In this document: one piece after another, positions 783 to 43,953 of the stretch | Layout: the number at the start of each line of letters is the position of its first letter | Numbering within the stretch: position 1 is the first letter of the stretch | UHGV virus genome: UHGV-0199997 | DNA length: 43,953 bases | Direction: 5' to 3' (one strand) | Origin: a virus | Made by a program: the position numbers and the translations under genes | The notes under the pieces: generated by a model | What the model was told of the DNA's origin: nothing | Database searches by the model: none | What the model saw: the letters and a program-made list of their open reading frames with translations, nothing else

Positions 783-3048
783 TACCGCTAGTTTGATAGT
801 ACGAGTATCATCGACCGGCGTCGATAAAACCACATCACAACTGAACGGGCTTACTAAGGCGGCGGGGGCCGCAGCAGCCGCCGTTGTCAGTCTGGAAACC
901 GCTAAGCAGGTGTTCAGCGCGCTGGTGGACTCTCAGCGCAACTTCGACAAGCTAAATTCCGGACTCATCACGATGACCGGGAGCGCGGAGAACGCGGCTA
1001 AGGCTTTCAGCGTCCTGCAACAATTCGCAAAAGAAACCCCATACGGGCTTAACCAGGCGGTGGAAGGCTTTACTAAACTTGTGGCCCTGGGCCTGAACCC
1101 CAGCAAAGAAGCGTTAATCTCCTATGGCAACACCGCCGCGGCTATGGGTAAAGACCTTAATCAAATGATTGAGGCTGTGGCGGACGCCAGTACCTTTGAG
1201 TTTGAGCGCCTAAAAGAGTTCGGCATCAAGTCCTCCCAACAGGCAGATACAGTGTCGTTCACGTTCCGCGGCGTAACGACTACTGTTAAAAAGAACTCCG
1301 AAGAGATTCAGAAATACCTTCTGAACATCGGCAACACGGATTTCGCCGGGGCGATGGAGACGCGCTCTAAGACGTTAGACGGCCAGTTATCGAGCCTCGC
1401 TGACTCTTTCGACGGCCTTGTTCTTGCGGTAGCGCAATCCGGTTTTGGCGACGCGGTAGGTGAACAAGCAGCAACAGCGGAAGATGCCATCACGGCGCTC
1501 ACCGACGCCATTGCGTCTAATGAGATAGCAGCCACGCTGCAGGATTGGGTGACACTGTTCAATGAGTCGTTCAAGTTTATCTCCGACGCCTTGAACGACC
1601 TGGCATTTGACACCGAGGACAAATCCGCGGATATGTCCGACTCGCTGGGTACCATACCTGACGCTATCCGTGAGTGGTTGCCCGACATCCAGCAGACATT
1701 CCACGAGGTTATCGCGTGGTTCCAGCGCATTGACGATTATGCCGTAGCGCTAGGGCAGACCCTTGCCGACGTGTTTGACCCGAGCAAAACGGCAGCGCTC
1801 ACATTTAAAAACCTGACTGCAGAAGCCGACGCCGCATACGCCGCCAGCATAAAACGCGCAGAGGCAGAATCACAGGCCATTACCAACAGGTCTAAGCAGC
1901 GTAAGAAAGAAATTGAGGAGCAACGCAAGCAGTATAATGAGCGCAAGAAGCAAGAGATTGACTTAGCCAGCCTTGTTAATAACAAGGGTGGAACTGGTGG
2001 GGCGGGAAACACCAACGACAAAGACGCGAAAGCTGCCGCTAAGAAAGCGGAGCAATTACGTAAACAGGCGCAGGATTACCTCGACACTTTGGCTCGTCAG
2101 AACAACGACGAGTTAAAGGCTATTGACGCTCAGGAACAGCAGAAACTGGCTAAGGCAAAAGAGTTCTACGGCCAGGGCGCGTTGTCTCTGAAAGAATACG
2201 AACAAGCTAAAACGGCTATCGTCCTTGAAGCAGGGCAAAAACGGCAAGATGAACTGGATAAACGCCAGAAAGAAGCCCAGGAAAAGCAGCAGAAAGGCGA
2301 CGACTTCATGGCCCAGATTATGGGCCAGAACGCCACTGAGCTTGAGCTTCTCGATATCCAGGAACAGCAGAAACTGGCTGTCGCCGATAAATACCGCGAA
2401 CAGGGGCTGATTAAAGAGGAACAGTATCAGGCGGCACTTAACGCTATCAATGAGCAGTATGCTACGAAGCGCGCCGACGCAACGGCAACCGCCTTTGGTA
2501 ACATGGCCTCAAATATCGGGTCTGCGTTGGGCGAGGCCTCTGGTGCGTATAAGGCATTCGCTATCGTACAGGCCACTATCGCCACGTACACCGCAGCTAT
2601 TGAGGCGTACAAGTCAACGGCTGCTATCCCTGTAGTTGGCCCGTTCCTGGCCCCTGTAGCCGCTGCCGCTGCCGTTGGGGCAGGTATGGCGCAGATTTCA
2701 GCTATCAGATCCGCACGTGAACAGGGTGGTCAGTTGTCCGCGGGGCAGGCTTCCACCATCACGGAACGCGATAAACCTGAGGTTATCATGCCGGCGGGTG
2801 CATCGCGTGTGCGCACCGCGCAGCAGATGAAAGAAATTATGGGGCAAAACGGGTCTTCTTCCGGCCCGTCTAATGTTACTATCGTAAACAACACGAGTTC
2901 TCAAATCGGCAAAGTATCCACCGAACAAGATGATGAAGGCCGTTTGCGAATCATCATTGAAGAACAGGTTGCCGCGTCTTTGCAGAACAGCAACAGTAAG
3001 ATTAGCAAGGCCCGCAAGGCCACAAGAAATGCGCCGGGGTTCAAATAA
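775..3048 (+). CDS. tail tape measure protein
   Basis: Roughly 760-aa helical protein rich in A/Q/K/E repeats with a hydrophobic Gly/Ala segment near the C-terminus, in the expected position after the chaperone; ATG 775 follows RBS GAAGG (762-766). The ORF track opens at TTG 760. Confidence 0.85.
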   Translation: MADTASLIVRVSSTGVDKTTSQLNGLTKAAGAAAAAVVSLETAKQVFSALVDSQRNFDKLNSGLITMTGSAENAAKAFSVLQQFAKETPYGLNQAVEGFTKLVALGLNPSKEALISYGNTAAAMGKDLNQMIEAVADASTFEFERLKEFGIKSSQQADTVSFTFRGVTTTVKKNSEEIQKYLLNIGNTDFAGAMETRSKTLDGQLSSLADSFDGLVLAVAQSGFGDAVGEQAATAEDAITALTDAIASNEIAATLQDWVTLFNESFKFISDALNDLAFDTEDKSADMSDSLGTIPDAIREWLPDIQQTFHEVIAWFQRIDDYAVALGQTLADVFDPSKTAALTFKNLTAEADAAYAASIKRAEAESQAITNRSKQRKKEIEEQRKQYNERKKQEIDLASLVNNKGGTGGAGNTNDKDAKAAAKKAEQLRKQAQDYLDTLARQNNDELKAIDAQEQQKLAKAKEFYGQGALSLKEYEQAKTAIVLEAGQKRQDELDKRQKEAQEKQQKGDDFMAQIMGQNATELELLDIQEQQKLAVADKYREQGLIKEEQYQAALNAINEQYATKRADATATAFGNMASNIGSALGEASGAYKAFAIVQATIATYTAAIEAYKSTAAIPVVGPFLAPVAAAAAVGAGMAQISAIRSAREQGGQLSAGQASTITERDKPEVIMPAGASRVRTAQQMKEIMGQNGSSSGPSNVTIVNNTSSQIGKVSTEQDDEGRLRIIIEEQVAASLQNSNSKISKARKATRNAPGFK

Positions 3049-6980: not shown

Positions 6981-8975
6981 ATGTCAAGCGGATGCGGTGA
7001 CGTTTTAAGCCTGGCGGATTTACAAACCGCCAAGAAACACCAGATTTTTGAAGCTGAGGTTATCACCGGCAAGTCCGGCGGTGTCGCTGGCGGTGCTGAT
7101 ATTGATTATGCGACCAATGCGGTTACAGGGCAGACCCAAAAGACACTACCTGCCGTGTTACGTGACGTGGGCTTCCGCCCGGCGGCATTTACGTTCGCCA
7201 CTGGAGGTACGCTGGGTGTTAATGACGCAGATTTAGCGGTTTTATGGCCTATTTCCGATGGTGGCGATGGTAACTATTACGCGTGGAAAGGCGCGCTGCC
7301 GAAGGTTGTGCCTGCGGCGTCGACCCCTCTAACCACCGGCGGCGTTTCCGATGAGGCTTGGATGCCTGTGACAGAGGCCGCCTTACGTAGTGATTTAGCT
7401 TCCAGTAGTGGGGCTGGTATGATAGGGACTACCTCAGGCGCTACGGTGCAAGATACTATTAATCAAACAGGAACCCAGCAAAAGGATTTACATCCATTTG
7501 TACCAACAGGTTCTTTCGGTTCTGGTGCTTCTTTCACTTCTACACTTCAAGTATTCGAACATAATGGCGAATATTATTCATACAAAGGACCAATTTCACC
7601 AGGTTCTACAGTCCCGGCAACACCATCATCCGATGCAAACTGGAAAAAAGAACCCGTGTCTGACTATATTGAAAATTACGGCGGCGGCGTGCATGTTGCC
7701 GACCAAACACCCGCGATATTAAAAGCTATAGATGCTGGTGTACGACGCATTGTTCTACCCAAGGGTGAGCTTAGGATGTCACCTTGTACCATACCGGGAT
7801 ACACCCAAGGGCTAACTTTTGTAGGTCAAGGTGCTAACCAGGCGTACTCAGGTACTACAGTAATAAAACCGTTGAACGATGGTCAGAACTATATTTTTGG
7901 CTCTGGTGACACTAATGATGGGCAAGATAGTATTAAGTTTGAAAACATCCAGTTCGACGGTGAGTGGCGGTGCAACCACGCCATACTGCATACTCGTGGT
8001 GCCGGTTGGTACTACGAGAAGTTAACTGGCAAGAGATTCAATACGTGGTTTATCTACGACGGTCAAGGACTTGCCAGATTTAGAGATATTTATTGCGAAG
8101 CCACTGATGCATCAGATATCTCAATCCGTGCAACGGGGGGTGGCATACGGGTGTATAGCGACTCTGTCCTGGACACTGTGGAAGTGTACGGAGGAAGCTG
8201 CCCATTAAGGTTATCAGCCGGTGGCAATCGAGCTAGCAATATCTTTTGTAATGGAGGGTATGATATCGGCGCTATAGCTTTAGAGCCACAAGATACTTCA
8301 ACAAATCATATAAACACGGCGTTAAGTAATATATATATAGGTGAGAGTACTAATACATCAGGTGTAGCTATCCCAATTTTAGCACTGTATGGAAACTCCG
8401 TAAGAAAAGTAGAATCTGTGCAAATATCTAACGCTCATTTTGTTCATGCATCAACCACATTGAATACTAACATGACAGTTATAAGGGCTGATAAAGTTAA
8501 TGGTTTTGTTATGTCTTCTTTTGATGCACTTGCCATGGGAGAATACAGCACATCTAGCCGACGTACATATAACTTCCTTAATGCAACTAATTCTACATCT
8601 ATGTTATTTTCTGCTGGCAGTATTAGAGGCGTAAATAATAATCCAATAGTATTGGGTGATGGATGCTCATTGAGCATAGATGCAGTTGAGTTTAATGGCT
8701 GGGGTACAAACTCTGATTCTGGCACTGAAAACAAAGCCGCTATCAGAACCACATCCTCCGATGCAAGGTGCGTGATAGGCTCATCATGTAACTTTACCGC
8801 AAGTCAAACAGACTCATACGCCGTTTGTGCTTATAATGAGTTTACGGTTAGCGCATCGATACTTAACATAAACTATAGTAGTTCTACAATATTCTACCCT
8901 GCTAACGTTAATTACAGTTACATATATAAACGTCCCGGTGGTAAGATAACTTTAGTTAACACTTTTAGTGCGTAG
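6981..8975 (+). CDS. tailspike / tail fiber (receptor-binding protein), mosaic
   Basis: 664-aa ORF with RBS AAGAGGA; GC-rich N-terminal anchor domain followed by an AT-rich, Ser/Thr/Asn/Gly-rich C-terminal part; last gene of the tail operon, followed by a strong terminator. Confidence 0.7.
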   Translation: MSSGCGDVLSLADLQTAKKHQIFEAEVITGKSGGVAGGADIDYATNAVTGQTQKTLPAVLRDVGFRPAAFTFATGGTLGVNDADLAVLWPISDGGDGNYYAWKGALPKVVPAASTPLTTGGVSDEAWMPVTEAALRSDLASSSGAGMIGTTSGATVQDTINQTGTQQKDLHPFVPTGSFGSGASFTSTLQVFEHNGEYYSYKGPISPGSTVPATPSSDANWKKEPVSDYIENYGGGVHVADQTPAILKAIDAGVRRIVLPKGELRMSPCTIPGYTQGLTFVGQGANQAYSGTTVIKPLNDGQNYIFGSGDTNDGQDSIKFENIQFDGEWRCNHAILHTRGAGWYYEKLTGKRFNTWFIYDGQGLARFRDIYCEATDASDISIRATGGGIRVYSDSVLDTVEVYGGSCPLRLSAGGNRASNIFCNGGYDIGAIALEPQDTSTNHINTALSNIYIGESTNTSGVAIPILALYGNSVRKVESVQISNAHFVHASTTLNTNMTVIRADKVNGFVMSSFDALAMGEYSTSSRRTYNFLNATNSTSMLFSAGSIRGVNNNPIVLGDGCSLSIDAVEFNGWGTNSDSGTENKAAIRTTSSDARCVIGSSCNFTASQTDSYAVCAYNEFTVSASILNINYSSSTIFYPANVNYSYIYKRPGGKITLVNTFSA

Positions 8976-8979
8976 AAAT

Positions 8980-9005
8980 AAGGCCCCGAAAGGGGCCTTT
9001 TCTCT
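8980..9005. terminator. bidirectional rho-independent terminator
   Basis: AGGCCCC-GAAA-GGGGCCT stem-loop followed by TTTCTCT; sits between the convergent tailspike gene and the minus-strand replication operon. Confidence 0.7.
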
Positions 9006-9141
9006 ACTCTTCTGATACCTTCTCCAGTACAAACGCCAGTTGCGCATTAGCGGCATCTCTTTGCTGCCGTAGTCGTAGAACCTCTTCTTCAAGTTCCTTG
9101 ATACGTTTTTGTAATGCCGGAATCGGGGCTATGATGTTCAT
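9004..9141 (-). CDS. small coiled-coil protein (45 aa), not in the ORF track
   Basis: MNIIAPIPALQKRIKELEEEVLRLRQQRDAANAQLAFVLEKVSEE; its ATG overlaps the TGA of the upstream primase-like gene (ATGA), suggesting translational coupling. Confidence 0.35.
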   Translation of the reverse strand: MNIIAPIPALQKRIKELEEEVLRLRQQRDAANAQLAFVLEKVSEE

Positions 9142-21325: not shown

Positions 21326-21470
21326 TTGACTTTTACTAAGAAATATGCTAAGCTCGTCCTGAGCTTGTGAAGTATGAACAAGCGACCGCGGTGCGCGGCA
21401 GGCGAAACGAGCACGTCTCGACGTGTGGAGTGAGTCTCGCTGGCGCATTCGGAAGGGCCATAGTCTATTG
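21326..21470 (+). promoter_or_regulatory. promoter (TTGACT-N17-TAAGCT) plus conserved leader element, copy 1
   Basis: -35 at 21326-21331 and -10 at 21349-21354; 34-nt block identical to copy 2 at 21358-21391 containing a perfect hairpin GCTTGT-N9-ACAAGC; second conserved block at 21448-21470. Confidence 0.5.
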
Positions 21471-21623: not shown

Positions 21624-21659
21624 TTGCACACCCCAATATAATAGGATACTATTCACTTA
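21624..21659 (+). promoter_or_regulatory. conserved promoter element (TTGCAC-N17-TACTATTCACTTA)
   Basis: One of at least five near-identical ~36-bp elements, each 25-40 bp upstream of an RBS and start codon; this one precedes the gene at 21687. Confidence 0.5.
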
Positions 21660-21686
21660 TCGAAACGAGACAGAGGAGTGAGGGTT

Positions 21687-23150: not shown

Positions 23151-23186
23151 TTGCACGCTAAGATAGAATAGGCTACTATTCACTTA
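23151..23186 (+). promoter_or_regulatory. conserved promoter element (TTGCAC-N17-TACTATTCACTTA)
   Basis: Same element family as 21624-21659; precedes RBS GAGAGGAGAG and ATG 23211. Confidence 0.5.
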
Positions 23187-30394: not shown

Positions 30395-31876
30395 ATGTTA
30401 ACTATGAACGGTCAGAATCAGGGTGTTAAGACAAAACACCTGGAATGGCTACATCACTTCGATAAATGGCAGAAGGTACGCCACGCTCTGGAAGGCGACC
30501 TCATCCGTTATCTTCGCAACGTCGGGAAGAACGAGCCGGACCCTAAATATGCAGCACAGCGCCAGGAAGAATACGAGAATGGCGCTATCTGCTACAACTT
30601 CACAAAACGTACCCTGGCGGGGATGGTCGGCAGCGTTATGCGTAAAGACCCTGAGCAAATTATCCCACCTGAAATGGAGTACCTGCTACGCAACGCGGAT
30701 GGCTCAGGTGTCGGCTTGTGGCAGCACGCGCAGGACACGCTGATGGAGATTGACTCGGTGGGCCGTGGCGGTTTGCTGGTGGACGCCCCTGAGACTGCTG
30801 CTGCAACGGCGGCAGAACAGAACGCGGGGCTATTAAACCCGGTCATCGCGTTCTACACCGCGGAGAACATCATCAACTGGCGACTTACTCGCATCGGCTC
30901 AGTGAACCGCGTGACGATGGTTGTATTGCGTGAGGTATGGGAATACTCAGAACCTGGTGCAGAGTTCGAAACCAAGTTCGGTGAGCAATACCGCGTCCTT
31001 GACCTTATTGAAGGCCGTTACCGTCAGCGCATTTACCGCTTCGATGCCGAAGGTGGTGCTCAGGATGAGGTAATCGAAATATTCCCGGAACTCGGCGAAC
31101 AGTTACGCGGCAAAATCCCCTTCACATTCATCGGGGCAAGCAACAACGATGCAACCATCGACGACGCACCTTTGCTGCCGTTGGCTGAACTTAATATCGG
31201 ACATTTCCGCAACAGCGCGGACAATGAGGAGTCCAGCTTCGTTGTAGGCCAACCTACTCTGTTCATCGCCCCGGGAGAGAACATGAGCATGGAACAGTGG
31301 GCGGAAGCTAACCCGCACGGCGTGCGCATGGGGTCGCGTTCAGGCCATAACATCGGCTACGGCGGCAATGCGTTTCTGGTCCAGGCGGGAGAGAACAACC
31401 TTGCCAAGCAGAACATGCTGGATAAAGAGAATCAGGCAATCCAGATTGGGGCGCAGCTTATCACCCCTACGCAGCAAATCACCGCGGAATCGGCCCGCCT
31501 GCAACGCGGCGCTGACACCTCAGTTATGGCAACAATCGCACGTAACGTAAGCATGGCGTATACCGATGCGTTGCGCTGGGTAGCGGCGATGCTAGGGTTG
31601 CGTGAAGGCACAGAGATTGAGTTCAAACTGAACATGGAATTCTTCCTGCAACCGATGACCGCTCAGGACCGTGCACAGTGGATGGCGGATATTAACGCCG
31701 GTTTGCTGCCAGCTACTGCTTACTACGCGGCGTTGCGTAAGGCCGGTGTAACCGACTGGACTGACGAGGACATTCAGAACGCTATTGAGGATGCACCTCT
31801 GCCGAATGCTACGATGGTGCAAGGAGATATTCCGGCATCGGCTAACCCGCAAGACCAACAGAACCCGCCGCAATGA
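30395..31876 (+). CDS. portal protein
   Basis: 493-aa protein immediately after TerL; RBS AAGAGGA; acidic Q/P-rich C-terminal tail. Confidence 0.75.
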   Translation: MLTMNGQNQGVKTKHLEWLHHFDKWQKVRHALEGDLIRYLRNVGKNEPDPKYAAQRQEEYENGAICYNFTKRTLAGMVGSVMRKDPEQIIPPEMEYLLRNADGSGVGLWQHAQDTLMEIDSVGRGGLLVDAPETAAATAAEQNAGLLNPVIAFYTAENIINWRLTRIGSVNRVTMVVLREVWEYSEPGAEFETKFGEQYRVLDLIEGRYRQRIYRFDAEGGAQDEVIEIFPELGEQLRGKIPFTFIGASNNDATIDDAPLLPLAELNIGHFRNSADNEESSFVVGQPTLFIAPGENMSMEQWAEANPHGVRMGSRSGHNIGYGGNAFLVQAGENNLAKQNMLDKENQAIQIGAQLITPTQQITAESARLQRGADTSVMATIARNVSMAYTDALRWVAAMLGLREGTEIEFKLNMEFFLQPMTAQDRAQWMADINAGLLPATAYYAALRKAGVTDWTDEDIQNAIEDAPLPNATMVQGDIPASANPQDQQNPPQ

Positions 31877-31878
31877 GA

Positions 31879-31898
31879 AAGGCCCCGTGAGGGGCCTT
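31879..31898. terminator. bidirectional hairpin terminator
   Basis: AAGGCCCC-GTGA-GGGGCCTT stem-loop; U-rich flanks on both strands; separates the portal gene from a convergent minus-strand small gene. Confidence 0.6.
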
Positions 31899-31902
31899 AA
31901 AT

Positions 31903-32088
31903 TTAACAAGCTGATGTTGTCCAGTAATCACCATAATCATTTACGTAAAATTTCTTCATACCAGACCACCCGAAGTTCTTACATGTCTTTTTGAATCGCT
32001 TCATTACCTGTGTTCTTGTCAGCATCAAAACACTACCGTTTCCATCTCTTGCGAAATCTCCGCCGGACTTATATGGTTTCTTTTCCAC
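31903..32088 (-). CDS. small AT-rich moron protein (61 aa)
   Basis: Minus-strand ORF between portal and head-morphogenesis genes with its own upstream promoter element and downstream terminator; GTG start with RBS AGGGGG; clearly AT-richer than its flanks. Confidence 0.5.
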   Translation of the reverse strand: MEKKPYKSGGDFARDGNGSVLMLTRTQVMKRFKKTCKNFGWSGMKKFYVNDYGDYWTTSAC

Positions 32089-32109
32089 TTTTATGCCCCC
32101 TGTTTAAAT

Positions 32110-32145
32110 TAACCGAATAGTACCCTATTATATTGGTGTCTGCAA
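32110..32145 (-). promoter_or_regulatory. conserved promoter element (TTGCAG-N17-TACTATTC), minus orientation
   Basis: Member of the ~36-bp element family; drives the 61-aa minus-strand gene. Confidence 0.5.
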
Positions 32146-32189
32146 ATATTATTTTTATGCGTTACACTGGCGATACTACAGGAGGGCTT

Positions 32190-33233
32190 ATGAGCTTACT
32201 TACATCGCTAATCAGCCACCAGATATGGCTGCAACGCACCGCATCCGGCGAAGTGAAAGACCTTGCACCGTTTATTCAGGAGATGCGGGATGAAATCAAA
32301 CGGCAGGTGCTGTTATTCGGTGACGACGGGCGAAGCACAGCGCGCCTGAATAAACTGTTACGCGACCTCGAAGAAGCATTGACCGGACTTACGGGTGACT
32401 GGCAGACAAAGCTGACAGAAGACCTTAAGGAACTGGCAGCGTATGAGGCTGAGTGGAACGTAAAGACACTTACCGCCAACGTAAATGCGGAATTTGTTAC
32501 ACCTACCGCCGAACAGGTGTGGGCCGCCGCCGAGTTTCAACCGCTCTCATTAAGCGACAAACCAGTTGATTTCACCAAGCTGATGTCGGGCTGGGGTGAA
32601 ACAGAAGTCGCGCGCCTTGTAACCGGCGTTAAAATGGGTTTCGTACAAGGCCAAACCACACGGCAGATTGTTAAAAGCGTAGTCGGCGCTGGCGGACTGG
32701 CAGACATCTCGGAACGAAACGCAGCTACAGTAATACGTACTGCGCTGTCTCATGTGTCCAACGAAGCCCGTAACGAGACGTACCGCCAGAACGACGACAT
32801 CATTGAGAAATACGAAATAGTCGCCACACTCGACAGCCGTACATCAACAATATGCCGTAGCCTGGACAGGCAGGAATACGAAATCAGCAAAGGTCCGAGA
32901 CCCCCTTTCCATCCTAACTGCAGAACGACCACTGCGCCCGTAATCAGTTCCGAGTTCGATTTCCTGGATAAAGGTGCAAAACGCGCGGCTAAGGGTGCGA
33001 ACGGCGGTACTCAGGTAAGTGCGGACACCACTTACTACGAGTTCCTCAAACAACAACCGGCGTGGTTTCAGGACCAGGCCCTCGGCCCTGTTCGCGGTAA
33101 GATTTTCCGTAACAGCGGTATATCGCCGGAAGAGTTTCGCGTAATATCTGTAGATGGTTTTGGGAATCCGCTCACGCTTAAGCAGATGGCGGAACTCGAT
33201 AAACGTGTCGCTGATTATCTGAAAGGGGAATAA
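32190..33233 (+). CDS. head morphogenesis protein (minor head protein, SPP1 gp7 / Mu F-like)
   Basis: RBS AGGAGGG before ATG 32190; ~350-aa protein after the portal gene. The track start is 32133. Confidence 0.65.
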   Translation: MSLLTSLISHQIWLQRTASGEVKDLAPFIQEMRDEIKRQVLLFGDDGRSTARLNKLLRDLEEALTGLTGDWQTKLTEDLKELAAYEAEWNVKTLTANVNAEFVTPTAEQVWAAAEFQPLSLSDKPVDFTKLMSGWGETEVARLVTGVKMGFVQGQTTRQIVKSVVGAGGLADISERNAATVIRTALSHVSNEARNETYRQNDDIIEKYEIVATLDSRTSTICRSLDRQEYEISKGPRPPFHPNCRTTTAPVISSEFDFLDKGAKRAAKGANGGTQVSADTTYYEFLKQQPAWFQDQALGPVRGKIFRNSGISPEEFRVISVDGFGNPLTLKQMAELDKRVADYLKGE

Positions 33234-33694
33234 TGATGGGCTTTTTCAAAGTAACTGATGTACCGTCGCGTCGCGTAGTCCAGTACGCCCGCGTGTCTGG
33301 CTCCGGCGAGAACGTAGTATTTATTGAGGATGAAAGTGTACTAGGTACACCAGTAGACGATATGCCGTTTGCGGATAAGACAGGCATCGCACTTCCTGCG
33401 GCAGGTATGCTTTATGAGATTCCGTATCTGGCTGATGCGGGTGATGTGTATTTCTCCGAGCAACCGAAAGATGCGGAACTGGTAGACGGCAGCGCAACCC
33501 TCACTGTCGAAGTTAAAGCAGGTGAAGCGCCGTATACACTGACCTGGTACAAAGACGGTAAGGAAGTGGTAAACGCCCCGGAAGAGGCCTTGTCTCTGAC
33601 GGTCAATGCAGTTGGTGAATACTTCGTTAAGGTTACTGATGCCGATGGTGTAGATGCGGTAAGTAAAGCGGCGAAGGTTACTAAGCCAGAATGA
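33233..33694 (+). CDS. Ig-like domain protein (putative virion decoration)
   Basis: C-terminal Ig-like segment TLTVEVKAGEAPYTLTWYKDGKEV...GEYFVKVTDADG. Confidence 0.5.
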   Translation: MMGFFKVTDVPSRRVVQYARVSGSGENVVFIEDESVLGTPVDDMPFADKTGIALPAAGMLYEIPYLADAGDVYFSEQPKDAELVDGSATLTVEVKAGEAPYTLTWYKDGKEVVNAPEEALSLTVNAVGEYFVKVTDADGVDAVSKAAKVTKPE

Positions 33695-33697
33695 TAA

Positions 33698-33727
33698 AAG
33701 GCCCCTTATGGGGCCTTAATTTTATTT
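33698..33727. terminator. bidirectional rho-independent terminator
   Basis: AAGGCCCC-TTAT-GGGGCCTT followed by AATTTTATTT; shared by the convergent genes 33233-33694 (+) and 33722-34243 (-). Confidence 0.65.
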
Positions 33728-34243
33728 AAATCGCGCTGGCATTAGCACCATAAATGCAGTGTTTGAAAATGATATTTTGCATCCTCTGATTTGGTCCTGG
33801 AAATCGAAACGAGCGATTTCATTTTTGTATGCCTTAGAAATCTTGTGCGCGTCCGCCAAGTAGCGCAGGGTGAACCCTATGCTGTCAACCGCCCCCGGCG
33901 TGATGTGCGCCACACGTCTCCAGTCAGGAAACCTTCCGTCTACAACATCTACCGGAAGTGTACATATAAGCGCACGACTATCGTCATAGAAAGAAACGCT
34001 GCTGTTGTCGTGGTCTACTTCCGCGTAGTTAAATTTAGAAGGCTCTCTCCCTTTGATGTCTATGAGAACCGCATTCTCAACGTTTGTCTTAACGTTGTCG
34101 CAGAACAATCTATGACCGTCCGTAGACACTATCAATCCCTCCGGGTCTATGTAAAAAGCATTCAAATAATAGCGCACATCATTTTTAGCTCTGCATATTT
34201 TTGCCCCTACATACGCAGGGAAAGTAATTACTGTAGTAGCCAT
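33722..34243 (-). CDS. DnaN (beta sliding clamp)-like mini-protein
   Basis: 173 aa; VSTDGHRLF matches the conserved DnaN TDGHRL motif and the C-terminus FMVLMPARF matches the DnaN YVVMPMRL tail; own promoter element upstream; RBS GAGGAGGAG. Confidence 0.55.
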   Translation of the reverse strand: MATTVITFPAYVGAKICRAKNDVRYYLNAFYIDPEGLIVSTDGHRLFCDNVKTNVENAVLIDIKGREPSKFNYAEVDHDNSSVSFYDDSRALICTLPVDVVDGRFPDWRRVAHITPGAVDSIGFTLRYLADAHKISKAYKNEIARFDFQDQIRGCKISFSNTAFMVLMPARFK

Positions 34244-34264
34244 TTTAACTCCTCCTCGTTTCGA

Positions 34265-34300
34265 TAACTGAATAGTACCCTATTATGTTGGGGTGTGCAA
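34265..34300 (-). promoter_or_regulatory. conserved promoter element (TTGCAC-N17-TACTATTCAGTTA), minus orientation
   Basis: Member of the element family; immediately upstream of the DnaN-like gene. Confidence 0.5.
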
Positions 34301-34366
34301 ACTATTTATTAGCCTATTCCAGTTATTCCGCTCAATTGTAAATGTTGGAATAAACTATTCGAATAG

Positions 34367-34509
34367 TTGACTTTTCACTAAAAATATGCTAAGCTCCACC
34401 TGAGCTTGTGAAGTATGAACAAGCGACCGCGGCGCGGGCAGGTAACGGAGCGGGACGTAAGTCCTGAGTGTAGTTACGCTGACGCGTTCGGAAGGGCCAT
34501 ACTCTATTG
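34367..34509 (+). promoter_or_regulatory. promoter (TTGACT-N17-TAAGCT) plus conserved leader element, copy 2
   Basis: -35 at 34367-34372 and -10 at 34390-34395; conserved blocks at 34399-34432 and 34487-34509 are identical or near-identical to copy 1. Confidence 0.5.
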
Positions 34510-34575
34510 CTTGTGTAAAAAGTAACTGGTTTACTGAGATTACGCCGTTTCTATGTTTAAATGATAAGGACTAGC

Positions 34576-34602
34576 GCCCCGCTTTATGGCGGGGCTTTAC
34601 TT
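34576..34602 (+). terminator. hairpin terminator between the copy 2 leader and the spanin gene
   Basis: GCCCCGC-TTTATG-GCGGGGC followed by TTTACTT, about 20 nt upstream of the spanin RBS. Confidence 0.45.
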
Positions 34603-34619
34603 ATCGAGAAAGGAGAAAC

Positions 34620-35006
34620 ATGAATCTTAAAGCAACTGTCGTAGCGGGAGCATGTTTCATCATCCTGGCTTACGCACACGGCATCCACCAGTATCGCAGC
34701 GGCTGGCACGAAGGCCGGGCGAATCTCGTTTCGCAGCAACAGCAGAAAGCACAAGCTGAGTTAGCGAAGAAAACACAACGGCAGCAGCAGGATGAATCAA
34801 AGGCCGCAGCCGCTGACAACGAAGGCAAGACGAAATCAGAGGTGATTACCCGTGAAGTCGTTAAGTACATTAAAACGCCTGGCCGCAGCGTGTGCACTTT
34901 TGACCCTGAGCGCGTGCAGCTCAAGTCCCGCGCCGTCGCAAACGCAAATTCCATCCCCGGATATGACGATGATGCAGCCTCCGTGCAAACTGGCGCCGCC
35001 AAGTAG
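34620..35006 (+). CDS. i-spanin (Rz-like)
   Basis: N-terminal TM helix followed by a Q/A/K-rich coiled-coil periplasmic domain; contains an embedded +1-frame lipoprotein gene. Confidence 0.7.
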   Translation: MNLKATVVAGACFIILAYAHGIHQYRSGWHEGRANLVSQQQQKAQAELAKKTQRQQQDESKAAAADNEGKTKSEVITREVVKYIKTPGRSVCTFDPERVQLKSRAVANANSIPGYDDDAASVQTGAAK

Positions 35007-41362: not shown

Positions 41363-41388
41363 AAGGCCCCTTTCGGGGCCTTTTTCTT
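41363..41388. terminator. bidirectional rho-independent terminator
   Basis: AAGGCCCC-TTTC-GGGGCCTT followed by TTTTTCTT; U tracts on both strands; shared with the convergent minus-strand cassette. Confidence 0.75.
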
Positions 41389-41941
41389 ACAAACCTAATT
41401 TTAAAGCAATGTCTATAACGTTCGATTTAACGTCACCTGGTATGATGTAGGTGTCGTAATCTTTTACACCGCTAACATCATACAGATAACCACGGCTGTC
41501 CCCCTCAAACGTATAGCCGTCGCGATGGAGGCGAACGATTCGCACGTCATGACCCGCGGCGACGATAGGGGCTACTTCGCTGGCGAACCCGCCGTCGGAC
41601 ACTACAAAAACTTCGTCGCCGTCTGGCAAGTTTTCAGCAAGATACTTACCGAAATAATCACTACCAAGTACCGGTTTAATGAATTGCTCAGATATAGCAA
41701 TCATGAACTGACGCCGCGACAAGCCATTAAGGAAGCCTTCTGACTTTTCTTTCCGTGCCCGGTCGTCGTAGCCGTCGATAAACTCGTGGTAAGCATCCGG
41801 GCCTAATGCCGCCAGAGCGATATTGAACATTGGATTCTTGAAACTGGTGATTCCCTTCGCAAAGCCCATTTCTACCAGCGCCATAGCAAGTGTGTCTTTC
41901 CCGCAACCCGCCGGGCCATTAAGAATAATTACCTTAGCCAT
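41387..41941 (-). CDS. P-loop nucleotide/polynucleotide kinase (dNMP kinase / Pnk kinase-like)
   Basis: Walker A ILNGPAGCGKDT; the C-terminal pattern resembles T4 dNMP kinase; its start overlaps the stop of the HAD phosphatase gene. Confidence 0.6.
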   Translation of the reverse strand: MAKVIILNGPAGCGKDTLAMALVEMGFAKGITSFKNPMFNIALAALGPDAYHEFIDGYDDRARKEKSEGFLNGLSRRQFMIAISEQFIKPVLGSDYFGKYLAENLPDGDEVFVVSDGGFASEVAPIVAAGHDVRIVRLHRDGYTFEGDSRGYLYDVSGVKDYDTYIIPGDVKSNVIDIALKLGL

Positions 41942-42429
41942 TATTTATCGCTCCCGTGTGGTTTTAAGTGTGTAGAGTTCCCGTTACAGTCGTATTCAGT
42001 AACCGCGTGAGTGGTTATACCGAGTCCGCGGAAATGCTTTATTACCGCGGGAGAGTCGTCGAATGCGCACAAGATTCTTTCCAGCCCGATAGCACGTAAC
42101 ACCTCTTCTTTAATTACGATGTCTTTTCTGTTGTCGTGTTTGCTGCGCATTATCAGCGTGTCAAACTTAACGTTATTTTCTCGCAACCATTTACGAGTCC
42201 CATCCTCAGCGTCGTCGCTTCGACCGGTAAGGATGATTACGGTCATCCCGGTATGCCACAGCGTGTTGCACAAGTGAATGTTGTCATATATCGGCGCATC
42301 ATCTTTGCACGCCATGTTAAATGGCCTCCAAGCCCATGTTTCGCCGTAGTTATCTTTCGGCAGCAGGTGCAAACGATGTGTACCATCTGCTAATGTCCCG
42401 TCTAAATCGAAAATTACAATATCTTTCAT
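41941..42429 (-). CDS. HAD-family phosphatase resembling the T4 polynucleotide kinase 3'-phosphatase domain
   Basis: HAD motif I FDLDGTL, motif II ILTGR, and the segments DNRKDIVIKEEV and FDDSPAVIKHF align with recalled T4 Pnk phosphatase-domain motifs. Confidence 0.7.
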   Translation of the reverse strand: MKDIVIFDLDGTLADGTHRLHLLPKDNYGETWAWRPFNMACKDDAPIYDNIHLCNTLWHTGMTVIILTGRSDDAEDGTRKWLRENNVKFDTLIMRSKHDNRKDIVIKEEVLRAIGLERILCAFDDSPAVIKHFRGLGITTHAVTEYDCNGNSTHLKPHGSDK

Positions 42430-43556
42430 CCCAGCATCTCCGGTGAAATAGTTAAACGCGCAACCTCGCCATATTCGGCGCTATATGTAATTACGTTTGC
42501 ACTGCGGCCTGACATCCATCCGCCGCGAGAGGCGTAGGCGTCTTTAGCCGCCAGGGTGCGGTGTTGCTCGACAATCATGTTACGACTTTCTACAATCTTC
42601 TGGTGGTGCAGGTGGCCCACGTGAGCGTAGCTGTAAACACTCTCGCCGAACGCTTTACGGAACTTGGCAATCATAACAGGTTCGATAGCGTCGAATCGCG
42701 CCTTATGGCCGTGATGAAAGAACAGAGTCGTTTTGCCGTGTCGCACCATCTTGTAAACATCCGGCGACGTATCGACGAACACACGCGGCTCGTTGTCGTA
42801 CAGCGTGCTAAACATCTCAGCCAACCAAATCATTCCGCTTTCGTCGTGGTTCCCTTGCACGATAAGCAAGCGAACATTTTTATGCTTAACAAGGGCCATA
42901 TCAACAACACGGCGGACCATACGAATCATGTAGCGGACAAGTTTCTGATAACGGGTGTCAGCATCAAGAACATTACCACTCGCCGGTGTAACGGCAACCA
43001 GACTATCGAAGTGCGCAAGGTCCCCAAGCAGGTTAATAACCCCTGTTCCCGCATCCGGTGCTTTCTGAAACGCGGCATCGAACCAGCGGGAGAACAGGTC
43101 TTCTGCAATCTTCATATCCCAGTCGTCGCCGCTTTCATCGGCCCAGGCCAGCATACCGAGATGGAAATCAGATACCGTGTAAAGATTGAGTAGTTTATCG
43201 TCGCGTTTAGCCCGAACGGCTTTAACAGGAGCAACGGGGGTAATCTCCGACTTCATCCCTTCGATTACGGCTTTCATCAACTCTACCTGACGTTCGGCAT
43301 CGGTGTCGGTCTTAACCCATTGCAGCTTAGTGTTGCCGAACTCGTCCACCAGTGACGACGTGCCTTTAATCTTGTAGCCGTCTGGTACAAGATGACTGAC
43401 GTCGCGGCCGTGCCCTACGCCTTTCTTAGCCAGCTTCGCTTTACGGATACGAATAACGCGATCTGAGATGCCATATTTACGGGCTATATCGATATTCCTC
43501 AATCCGGCGTTCAATTCTTCCTGTAACTGTTCGTCGGTTATTTTCTTCCGGGCCAT
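42426..43556 (-). CDS. HTH domain fused to a calcineurin-like metallophosphoesterase
   Basis: N-terminal HTH (NIDIARKYGISDRVIRIRKAKL); phosphoesterase motifs DFHLG, GDLAHFD, GNHDE, HHGH, GHLHH. Confidence 0.65.
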   Translation of the reverse strand: MARKKITDEQLQEELNAGLRNIDIARKYGISDRVIRIRKAKLAKKGVGHGRDVSHLVPDGYKIKGTSSLVDEFGNTKLQWVKTDTDAERQVELMKAVIEGMKSEITPVAPVKAVRAKRDDKLLNLYTVSDFHLGMLAWADESGDDWDMKIAEDLFSRWFDAAFQKAPDAGTGVINLLGDLAHFDSLVAVTPASGNVLDADTRYQKLVRYMIRMVRRVVDMALVKHKNVRLLIVQGNHDESGMIWLAEMFSTLYDNEPRVFVDTSPDVYKMVRHGKTTLFFHHGHKARFDAIEPVMIAKFRKAFGESVYSYAHVGHLHHQKIVESRNMIVEQHRTLAAKDAYASRGGWMSGRSANVITYSAEYGEVARLTISPEMLG

Positions 43557-43594
43557 GCTTACGTCCTCGTGTTTAGGATTTGTCCTATACTAGC

Positions 43595-43786
43595 TCACTT
43601 CTCGTTAACATTCGAGTTGCACGCCCAGATTAAAATAAACACCCACGGCAGCAGAACCCATCCGAGAAACAGGTTAGCCATGAATATCGCTAACTTCGCT
43701 TTATGGTTACGGAAGTATGCAACCAGGAAAGGTGCGAAATAGGCGAGCAGTGCAAACAGAATTAAGGAAACTGGTAAACTTGACAT
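43595..43786 (-). CDS. superinfection-immunity-like small membrane protein
   Basis: YFAPFLVAYFRNHKAKLAIFMANLFLGWVLLPWVFILIW matches the recalled Imm-type pattern (YF.P.IIAF.R.H...AIF.LNL.LGWT..GW..ALIW); ATG 43786 with RBS GAAGGGG; first gene of the minus-strand cassette. Confidence 0.55.
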   Translation of the reverse strand: MSSLPVSLILFALLAYFAPFLVAYFRNHKAKLAIFMANLFLGWVLLPWVFILIWACNSNVNEK

Positions 43787-43809
43787 TTTAAACCCCTTCA
43801 TTGTTGGTG

Positions 43810-43845
43810 TAAGTGAATAGTACCCTATTATATTGGGGCGCGCAA
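43810..43845 (-). promoter_or_regulatory. conserved promoter element (TTGCGC-N17-TACTATTCACTTA), minus orientation
   Basis: Member of the element family; drives the four-gene minus-strand cassette. Confidence 0.5.
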
Positions 43846-43953
43846 GTAGTGTGCTAGAATAAGTTTGCGCCTAGTGTCGCACACGAAAAGCGGGTGGTTC
43901 CCGTCTGGCGCATTTATCGTTAACCTGTAACCTCTTAACCAAAGGATTAAAGA

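Follow-up and report, generated by a model that had tools for sequence, protein, structure and literature searches.

A putative one-gene accessory cassette between the portal and head-morphogenesis genes of a genome assigned to Kagunavirus

The virus genome UHGV-0199997 (43,953 nucleotides; this whole stretch of DNA is called the window below) carries a minus-strand gene for a protein of 61 amino acid residues between its portal gene and its Mu-F head-morphogenesis gene. On balance we favour, by a modest degree of confidence, the reading that a hypervariable slot of a virulent Kagunavirus here holds an accessory cassette of one gene; that its product would be a small binding protein serving host takeover or anti-defence is a guess within this reading. 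The architecture of the cassette, as read from the sequence, we regard as highly probable: the gene would be transcribed from a promoter element and ended by a hairpin that are both repeated elsewhere in the same genome, while only the open reading frame (ORF) between them is common to different groups of phages. The DNA around the gene has matches in 170 phage records, at 86-92% identity; most of these are from Escherichia phages of the genus Kagunavirus (Guernseyvirinae), and judged by sequence the window is a genome of this genus. Kagunaviruses are reported to be virulent and without lysogeny genes (PMC9825357, PMC7203180), a statement that concerns published relatives and not this window.

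A preliminary description of the region had proposed a minus-strand gene that starts with GTG behind the ribosome-binding site AGGGGG, and the gene was found just so, with exactly the translation given there (Table 1). GTG is the true start, because the N-terminus MEKKPYKSGG aligns with the starts of homologues; the nearest relative, a copy on the metagenomic contig L009, likewise starts with GTG. The exact window protein, written with V1, is present in the protein collection that was searched (JGI/IMG origin). Among 5.8 billion protein clusters, 19 proved to be close relatives with 66-95% identity, and a profile search extended these to 53 homologue clusters, all of 60-104 residues with aligned ends and all unnamed or called "hypothetical". 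When 1.84 billion representatives were searched exhaustively by profile, 12 matches came back, nine of which are similar small proteins (one, P0018, was already among the homologues of the first search); the other three (P0022, P0026 and P0027) are long repeat proteins matched through repetition only and were discarded as spurious. The statement in the preliminary description that the product belongs to no recognised family therefore stands for Pfam, PHROGs, NCBIfam and PADLOC, none of which has a match for the 61-residue protein, but homologues do exist. Scanning 23 family members in the same four collections produced only scattered single-member matches, at E 0.003 or weaker, none of them credible.

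Compared across seven homologous DNAs, synonymous differences reach a proportion of 0.60-0.92, that is, saturation, and non-synonymous ones a proportion of 0.15-0.24, which indicates strong purifying selection. By this evidence 31903-32088 is a real gene under purifying selection. Short ORFs are plentiful (215 of at least 55 residues in the window), which lends something to the idea of a chance ORF in a regulatory spacer; full-length homologues in many phages, together with saturated synonymous and constrained non-synonymous change, effectively refute it, the confident structure prediction described below also speaks against it, and we consider it next to impossible.

The pocket that holds the gene is AT-richer than the flanking structural genes, as first described: the guanine-plus-cytosine (GC) content is 39.2% in the ORF and 37.8% in the gap 31899-32189, compared with 50.7% in the genome, 55.1% in the portal gene and 52.3% in the Mu-F gene. 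The sliding-window calculation suggested at the time places the ORF at the 2.6th percentile of all 186-nucleotide windows (standard deviation 5%), and about ten such low-GC pockets occur in the genome; the pocket is clear, yet not extreme. GC at third codon positions is 0.40 in the 61-residue gene and 0.55-0.63 in neighbouring genes. Homologous ORFs are AT-richer than their resident phage at 9 of 11 loci, mostly at third codon positions too, so the low GC stems from the history of the gene and not only from its lysine- and asparagine-rich product.

Upstream of the gene lies a repeated element that reads, in the direction of the gene, TTGCA(C/G)-N17-TACTAT, with a nearly invariant spacer, ACCCCAATATAATAGGG. 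The conserved promoter element of the preliminary description thus proves to be a true repeat, somewhat longer than then given: it recurs at 34265-34303 and 43810-43848 and, inverted, at 21633-21654 and about 23162. This makes five strong copies (21635+, 23162+, 32134-, 34289- and 43834-), and the 22-nucleotide core has four matches with at most three mismatches, compared with none in 100 shuffles. Each of the five copies stands 20-35 nucleotides upstream of a ribosome-binding site and start codon of the same polarity. At the other four copies these sites are purine-rich (GGAG, GAGGAG, AGGAGG and GAAGGGG) and lie 14-22 nucleotides past the motif and 5-12 nucleotides before the start codon. The polarity of the promoter is fixed by the copy at 23162, because it sits between two plus-strand genes, and transcription of the 61-residue gene is predicted to start near 32110 on the minus strand. 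The other copies precede small-ORF clusters that start at 21678 and about 23211, a gene for a clamp-like protein of 173 residues, and a nuclease/kinase operon; behind the copy at 43834 this operon encodes a 68-residue protein matching a PHROG described as "immunity to superinfection", an exonuclease, a polynucleotide kinase and a deoxynucleoside monophosphate kinase. Judged by these genes, the promoter class is one of non-structural genes.

A published PHIRE consensus, tgAATAGTa-ccTATTat-T, agrees with the motif; it is reported at seven sites in phage fBC-Eco01 and was ascribed there to a phage RNA polymerase (PMC9825357). That label does not fit the window, where none of the annotated large ORFs is an RNA polymerase. 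Host RNA polymerase is the likelier reader, because no polymerase gene was found among these ORFs, perhaps with a phage factor that recognises the conserved spacer. The spacer contains a perfect TATAAT and the palindrome AATAG-N4-CTATT; TATAAT was ruled out as the -10 element, there being no conserved -35 element at a suitable distance. On its other side the element adjoins the leader of the Mu-F gene. This leader may contain a plus-strand promoter, CTGCAA-N17-TACACT, that diverges from the minus-strand one; the two -35 elements would overlap and are reverse complements of each other.

At the other end of the gene, 4 nucleotides past its stop codon, lies a hairpin with a stem of 8 base pairs and a loop of 4 nucleotides, with a folding energy of -16.8 kcal/mol (z = -2.4). 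The hairpin that had been proposed here is real by this measure and by its recurrence: AGGCCCC-N4-GGGGCCT has four exact copies in the window (0.07 expected), which differ only in the loop and all lie where plus- and minus-strand genes converge. We presume, from sequence and position, that the hairpin is a bidirectional terminator common to the portal gene and the 61-residue gene, and the four copies look like a standardised version of such a terminator. In relatives the hairpin is kept after the portal gene whether the slot is full or empty, and in empty slots it would be the terminator of the portal gene.

Comparison with relatives shows how variable the slot is. An empty gap of about 70 base pairs between portal and Mu-F genes is found in fFiEco03, K1G, K1ind1/2, Bas70, Bas72, RP180 and most of the other readable two-flank matches listed; it contains the hairpin only (AGCCCC-GAAA-GGGGCT followed by TTTCTT), without the promoter element. 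About 16 of the listed records have a longer gap with minus-strand cargo inside. The cargo is a 114-residue protein together with a 53-residue DUF7170 protein in UTEC10, a 173-residue protein with a weak, sub-threshold beta-clamp match in fBC-Eco01, SHAK7693 and phage 26, a 93-residue ORFan in the CR01 group, a 64-residue coding sequence with an unannotated 79-residue ORF in phiWAO78-1, a 217-residue protein annotated as "amidase" with a KilA-N match just below threshold in EcoPhCCP1, and a 55-residue ORFan in phiSD1. Counting the 61-residue gene of the window, the slot holds at least seven unrelated cargos. In the occupied slots of UTEC10, CR01 and phiWAO78-1 the cargo lies between the post-portal hairpin on one side and the promoter element with the conserved Mu-F leader on the other, and similarity among relatives stops directly after the hairpin and directly downstream of the -10 element. 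The Mu-F leader is present in these three phages and diverged in L009; the empty-slot phage fFiEco03 has unrelated sequence in its place. As an observation on its own, the conserved leader sequence TGCAAATATTATTTTTATGCGTTACACT spans 32140-32168 in the window, 2520-2555 in locus L001 and about 1200-1240 on the minus strand of L009.

The same layout of hairpin, cargo and promoter is seen in three minus-strand islands within the plus-strand late region of the window (31880-32148, 33699-34303 and 41364-43848). The 173-residue gene (1996-2517 in locus L002) occupies the portal/Mu-F slot in fBC-Eco01 and the next slot in the window; cargo therefore appears to move between slots. In the window this second slot, 33699-34303, consists of a hairpin (33699-33716), the 173-residue minus-strand gene and a promoter element (34265-34303). 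The 173-residue gene gives a weak match to the DNA polymerase III beta clamp, and its annotations vary between "sliding clamp" and "RusA-like".

The distribution of the gene points to exchange between phages. Searching 50,697 phage records by tblastn, we found the 61-residue protein in no other Guernseyvirinae record; the same search matched four closely related Klebsiella weberviruses at 78% amino acid identity, an Aeromonas phage at 40% and, more weakly, Vibrio phages. The nearest annotated homologue, a hypothetical protein of Klebsiella Webervirus KW1 / RCIP0004 (WWS21424.1), is 78% identical over its full length. It resembles the window gene in being a small gene among early or accessory ORFs, and differs in lying on the same strand as its neighbours, directly upstream of terS, with no similarity in the flanking DNA: the nucleotide match to the weberviruses (74.5% identity) is confined to the ORF. 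No copy of the gene was found by tblastn in 72,556 plasmids or by blastn in 5,426 complete Escherichia coli genomes (20,395 replicons), and a search of IMG/VR from the alignment of close relatives returned only 2 loci. Elsewhere homologues are found in early or accessory regions of unrelated phages: directly upstream of terS behind a series of small ORFs, downstream of NinG in a nin-like (lambdoid-like) region, after a primase-helicase gene, in a reverse-oriented accessory island within a structural module, as a lone reverse-strand gene amid small ORFs, and at the head of a short plus-strand ORF run amid minus-strand genes.

The metagenomic contig L009 provides the most informative comparison. 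Its portal and Mu-F genes are closest to those of Salmonella phage PSDA-2 (87%), its Mu-F gene is about 66% identical to that of the window, and it holds the 61-residue ORF in the same portal/Mu-F slot. Identity to the window is 82% at the 3' end of the portal gene, 92% in the hairpin region, 97.8% in the ORF, 64% in the 5' untranslated region, 69% in the promoter and 52% at the start of the Mu-F gene, so that it falls from 97.8% to 64% at the start codon; the promoter version of L009 is TTGCAT-N17-TACTAT. A near-identical ORF amid diverged flanks argues that the ORF was exchanged recently between diverged lineages, each keeping its own promoter version. Judged by these sequence comparisons, the 61-residue gene is a horizontal gain. 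Between its promoter region and its Mu-F start L009 also has, at about 1030-1105 (minus-strand reading), a short hydrophobic ORF (MIDAIVISGGICGVIGYLIGMLTS), which overlaps the Mu-F ATG and is absent from the window.

Homology and structure prediction had been proposed as checks, and the second gave a confident model to set beside the homologue clusters. With 20 sequences AlphaFold2 produced one good model (predicted local distance difference test, pLDDT, 91.7) beside four poor ones; given 46 sequences, it converged in all five models, with pLDDT 91.4-94.1 and a predicted template modelling score of 0.78. The predicted fold is ββαββ, made up of β(4-8), a short β pair around a DGNG turn, α(25-38), β(47-51) and β(56-60). 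The best structural matches are small ββαββ two-layer domains with the same order of secondary structure (protein G B1, the IF3 N-terminal domain and the AdoMetDC beta chain); sequence and fold searches of PDB gave no credible relative of the 61-residue protein. One hit of the PDB profile search, 8fjf "H10" (E = 9e-6), was rejected as a homologue: the alignment comes down to a DGxGN beta-turn with a helix behind it, found three times over, and a designed repeat protein is suggested by the molecule name and by three internal repeats that are nearly identical.

All 46 aligned family members are basic, with isoelectric points of 9.0-10.1 and net charges of +4 to +11; for the window protein the values are 9.7 and +7, with a grand average of hydropathy (GRAVY) of -0.83, that is, hydrophilic. 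The most conserved residues are those of the turn and core (P5, G10, D15, N17, D51, G53 and Y55) and the lysines K4, K7, K33 and K45, and fold and charge are kept across the family down to 25-40% identity. The model weakly supports a non-enzymatic binder of a polyanion or of an acidic partner, and nothing more specific; a non-enzyme is suggested because the protein is too small and motif-poor.

Table 1. Coordinates and basis of the gene, its flanking elements and related features of the window.
Feature	Position	Strand	Details
Portal gene (PHROG 145, DUF4055)	30395-31876	+	family profile match
GC-rich hairpin, presumed terminator	31879-31898		stems 31879-31886 / 31891-31898, loop GTGA
61-residue protein gene	31903-32088	-	GTG start 32086-32088, TAA stop 31903-31905; from ORF list and homologues
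Ribosome-binding site AGGGGG	32096-32101	-	7 nucleotides before GTG; read from sequence
Repeated promoter element (predicted)	32110-32148	-	-35 TTGCAG (32145-32140), conserved 17-nucleotide spacer, -10 TACTAT (32122-32117)
Mu-F leader (…ATTATTTTTATGCGTTACACTGGCGATACTACAGGAGGGCTT-ATG)	32149-32189	+	conserved only among occupied-slot relatives
Mu-F head-morphogenesis gene (PHROG 241, PF04233)	32190-33233	+	family profile match
AGGCCCC-N4-GGGGCCT copies	8981-8998, 31880-31897, 33699-33716, 41364-41381		all at plus/minus gene convergence
68-residue ORF, PHROG "immunity to superinfection"	43595-43801	-	heads exonuclease / polynucleotide kinase / dNMP-kinase operon

The other large ORFs of the window are annotated as tape measure, tail, tailspike, helicase, methyltransferase, DNA polymerase, exonucleases, helicase-primase, terminase and major head protein. 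Its largest low-GC pocket, 8194-9051, takes in the part of the tailspike gene (6981-8975) that encodes the C-terminus. The tailspike gene has a match to a PHROG for "haemolysin-type calcium binding"; the pocket is consistent with a recent swap of a receptor-binding module. Two copies of a sequence of about 145 nucleotides, 21326-21470 and 34367-34509, are 87-89% identical. Each opens with a near-consensus sigma-70 promoter, TTGACT-N17-TAAGCT, followed by conserved and possibly structured sequence; in a two-sequence consensus fold four pairs of one divergent hairpin are kept through two-sided changes, and the second copy ends at a strong hairpin (34574-34600). This duplication could be a phage small RNA or an ORF for a peptide of 36 residues (34415-34525). 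Rfam has no match within 31000-35000 (E up to 1) or, at gathering thresholds, in the whole window.

The preliminary description had called the gene a moron. Taking the criteria for morons as in PMC2920897, after the Hendrix/Juhala concept from lambdoid and other temperate phages, we find by sequence a gene between genes that are adjacent in relatives, with control elements of its own and deviant GC, that recurs in several phage groups (Webervirus, an Aeromonas phage, Vibrio phages, a lambdoid-like nin region and other metagenomic phages). As in morons, the site is an insertion hotspot with different inserts in different relatives, and what survives of the earlier reading is a separate, reverse-strand, AT-rich unit between structural genes that adjoin in most listed relatives. 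The control elements, in contrast, are not imported: since the hairpin also occurs in relatives with empty slots, and both elements are repeated within the phage, they were not brought in with the gene. Promoter and terminator are thus the resident phage's own repeats, and only the ORF is common to the phage groups. Classical morons are, moreover, carried by temperate phages and expressed from the prophage; here there is no copy in the E. coli genomes and plasmids searched, and because kagunaviruses are reported to be virulent (PMC9825357, PMC7203180) the gene is better called moron-like than a classical prophage-expressed moron.

The closest mechanistic analogue is found in the promoter-early stem-loop (PeSL) cassettes of T4-type phages, in which early promoters and stem-loops, both repeated, flank ORFans and bring about the shuffling of modules (PMC2839356, PMC4122927). 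Common to both are repeated promoter and stem-loop elements around non-essential ORFans, end-points of insertion, deletion and replacement between relatives that fall at the repeats, and cargo, here the 173-residue clamp-like gene, that occurs in different slots of different relatives. The repeated motif of the window, a putative promoter, has -35/-10 geometry upstream of ORFans but is a weak sigma-70 match, at 7 of 12 consensus positions. On the other hand, the GC-rich hairpin lies about 210 nucleotides from the promoter, at the far end of the cargo, and does not form one composite motif with it; inside the promoter of this phage there is only a weak AT palindrome of 5 base pairs, the sequences are unrelated, and the carrier is a siphovirus of 44 kb and not a T4-type phage. 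Because promoter and hairpin are separate elements, we treat the likeness to PeSL as an analogy and not as membership.

The accessory-cassette reading would work as follows. Host RNA polymerase would start near 32110 on the minus strand and stop at the hairpin; the resulting mRNA, monocistronic and about 235 nucleotides long, would be made alongside those of the DNA-metabolism and small early genes of the same promoter class; the shared class would leave the gene uncoupled from the head genes that surround it. The cytoplasmic, strongly basic ββαββ protein would bind its target stoichiometrically, either a polyanion (nucleic acid of host or phage) or an acidic protein of the host, in a role that is dispensable and strain-dependent, namely host takeover or anti-defence. 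This is the most likely single role on the sequence evidence, yet in itself less likely than not. Recombination at the repeated promoter and hairpin, or between them, would add, remove and swap cargo. Kagunaviruses reportedly show high sensitivity to restriction-modification systems and variable sensitivity to Old (PMC11990801), and a published time course of Kagunavirus infection is without promoter-level data (PMC12645636).

Several points weigh against this reading. A strict scan called no terminator at the hairpin, where T-runs are short, and a simple consensus scanner called no minus-strand promoter, the motif matching 7 of the 12 sigma-70 consensus positions; because the scanners called neither, promoter and hairpin rest on repetition and context and not on consensus strength. 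The near-invariant spacer suggests that a phage regulator acts beside host sigma-70, which makes the temporal class of the promoter uncertain. No gene neighbour is conserved across the lineages with homologues, and basic charge is common for small phage proteins.

The nature of the product leaves room for other explanations, of which two are improbable to a similar degree. The protein might act against competing phages, by superinfection exclusion or inter-phage interference, and not on the host; it shares its promoter class with the 68-residue "immunity to superinfection" match, and its patchy, mobile spread across co-occurring enterobacterial phages would suit such a role. Superinfection-exclusion proteins are, however, mostly membrane or periplasmic proteins, whereas the 61-residue protein is hydrophilic by its GRAVY value and, in the PHROG and family scans, has no homology to any exclusion family. 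Alternatively, the ORF might be a selfish or near-neutral passenger in a slot that readily takes up DNA without gain for the phage, as its absence from nearly all relatives, the many unrelated ORFans in the slot and the great rarity of the family (53 clusters in 5.8 billion, 2 IMG/VR loci) could be read to say. Strong purifying selection across lineages with saturated synonymous sites argues otherwise, as do a fold and charge kept at 25-40% identity: the sequence matters to some replicator.

Much less probable still is a head-assembly or virion accessory protein, which only the location between portal and Mu-F genes recommends; the gene lies on the opposite strand, has the promoter class of DNA-metabolism and early genes, and is missing from most kagunaviruses with the same head genes, and its homologues adjoin primase-helicase, NinG or terS genes or sit in early clusters of unrelated phages. 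We would hardly expect, either, a small DNA-binding regulator of the phage's own promoter element. The protein is basic and the promoter core contains an inverted repeat, but relatives keep the promoter elements without the 61-residue gene, and homologues occur in phages without this element.

Beyond the accessory-cassette reading, a bolder version of it seems unlikely on the sequence evidence: that the protein is the founding member of a family of small basic binders without any structural relative that can be detected, which neutralises a host defence or process, for example by masking or coating nucleic acid, and spreads through ORF-level recombination into promoter- and hairpin-bounded slots across unrelated enterobacterial, Aeromonas and Vibrio phages. 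If true, it would mean PeSL-like cassette exchange in small siphoviruses.

As a type of feature the gene is ordinary, an accessory ORFan cassette in a plastic slot, while its product family is rare, uniformly basic and uncharacterised. The 61-residue protein is in itself one more uncharacterised small phage protein and will matter only if a target is found. The cargos of the slot, in turn, give a small set of candidates for counter-defence. Kagunaviruses, which are small and can be engineered, serve in therapy and as models, and a slot open by nature to foreign genes and furnished with a defined promoter and terminator would be a practical landing pad for payloads. By analogy, the layout of hairpin, cargo and promoter suggests that the cassette shuffling of T4-type phages may also operate in small siphoviruses.

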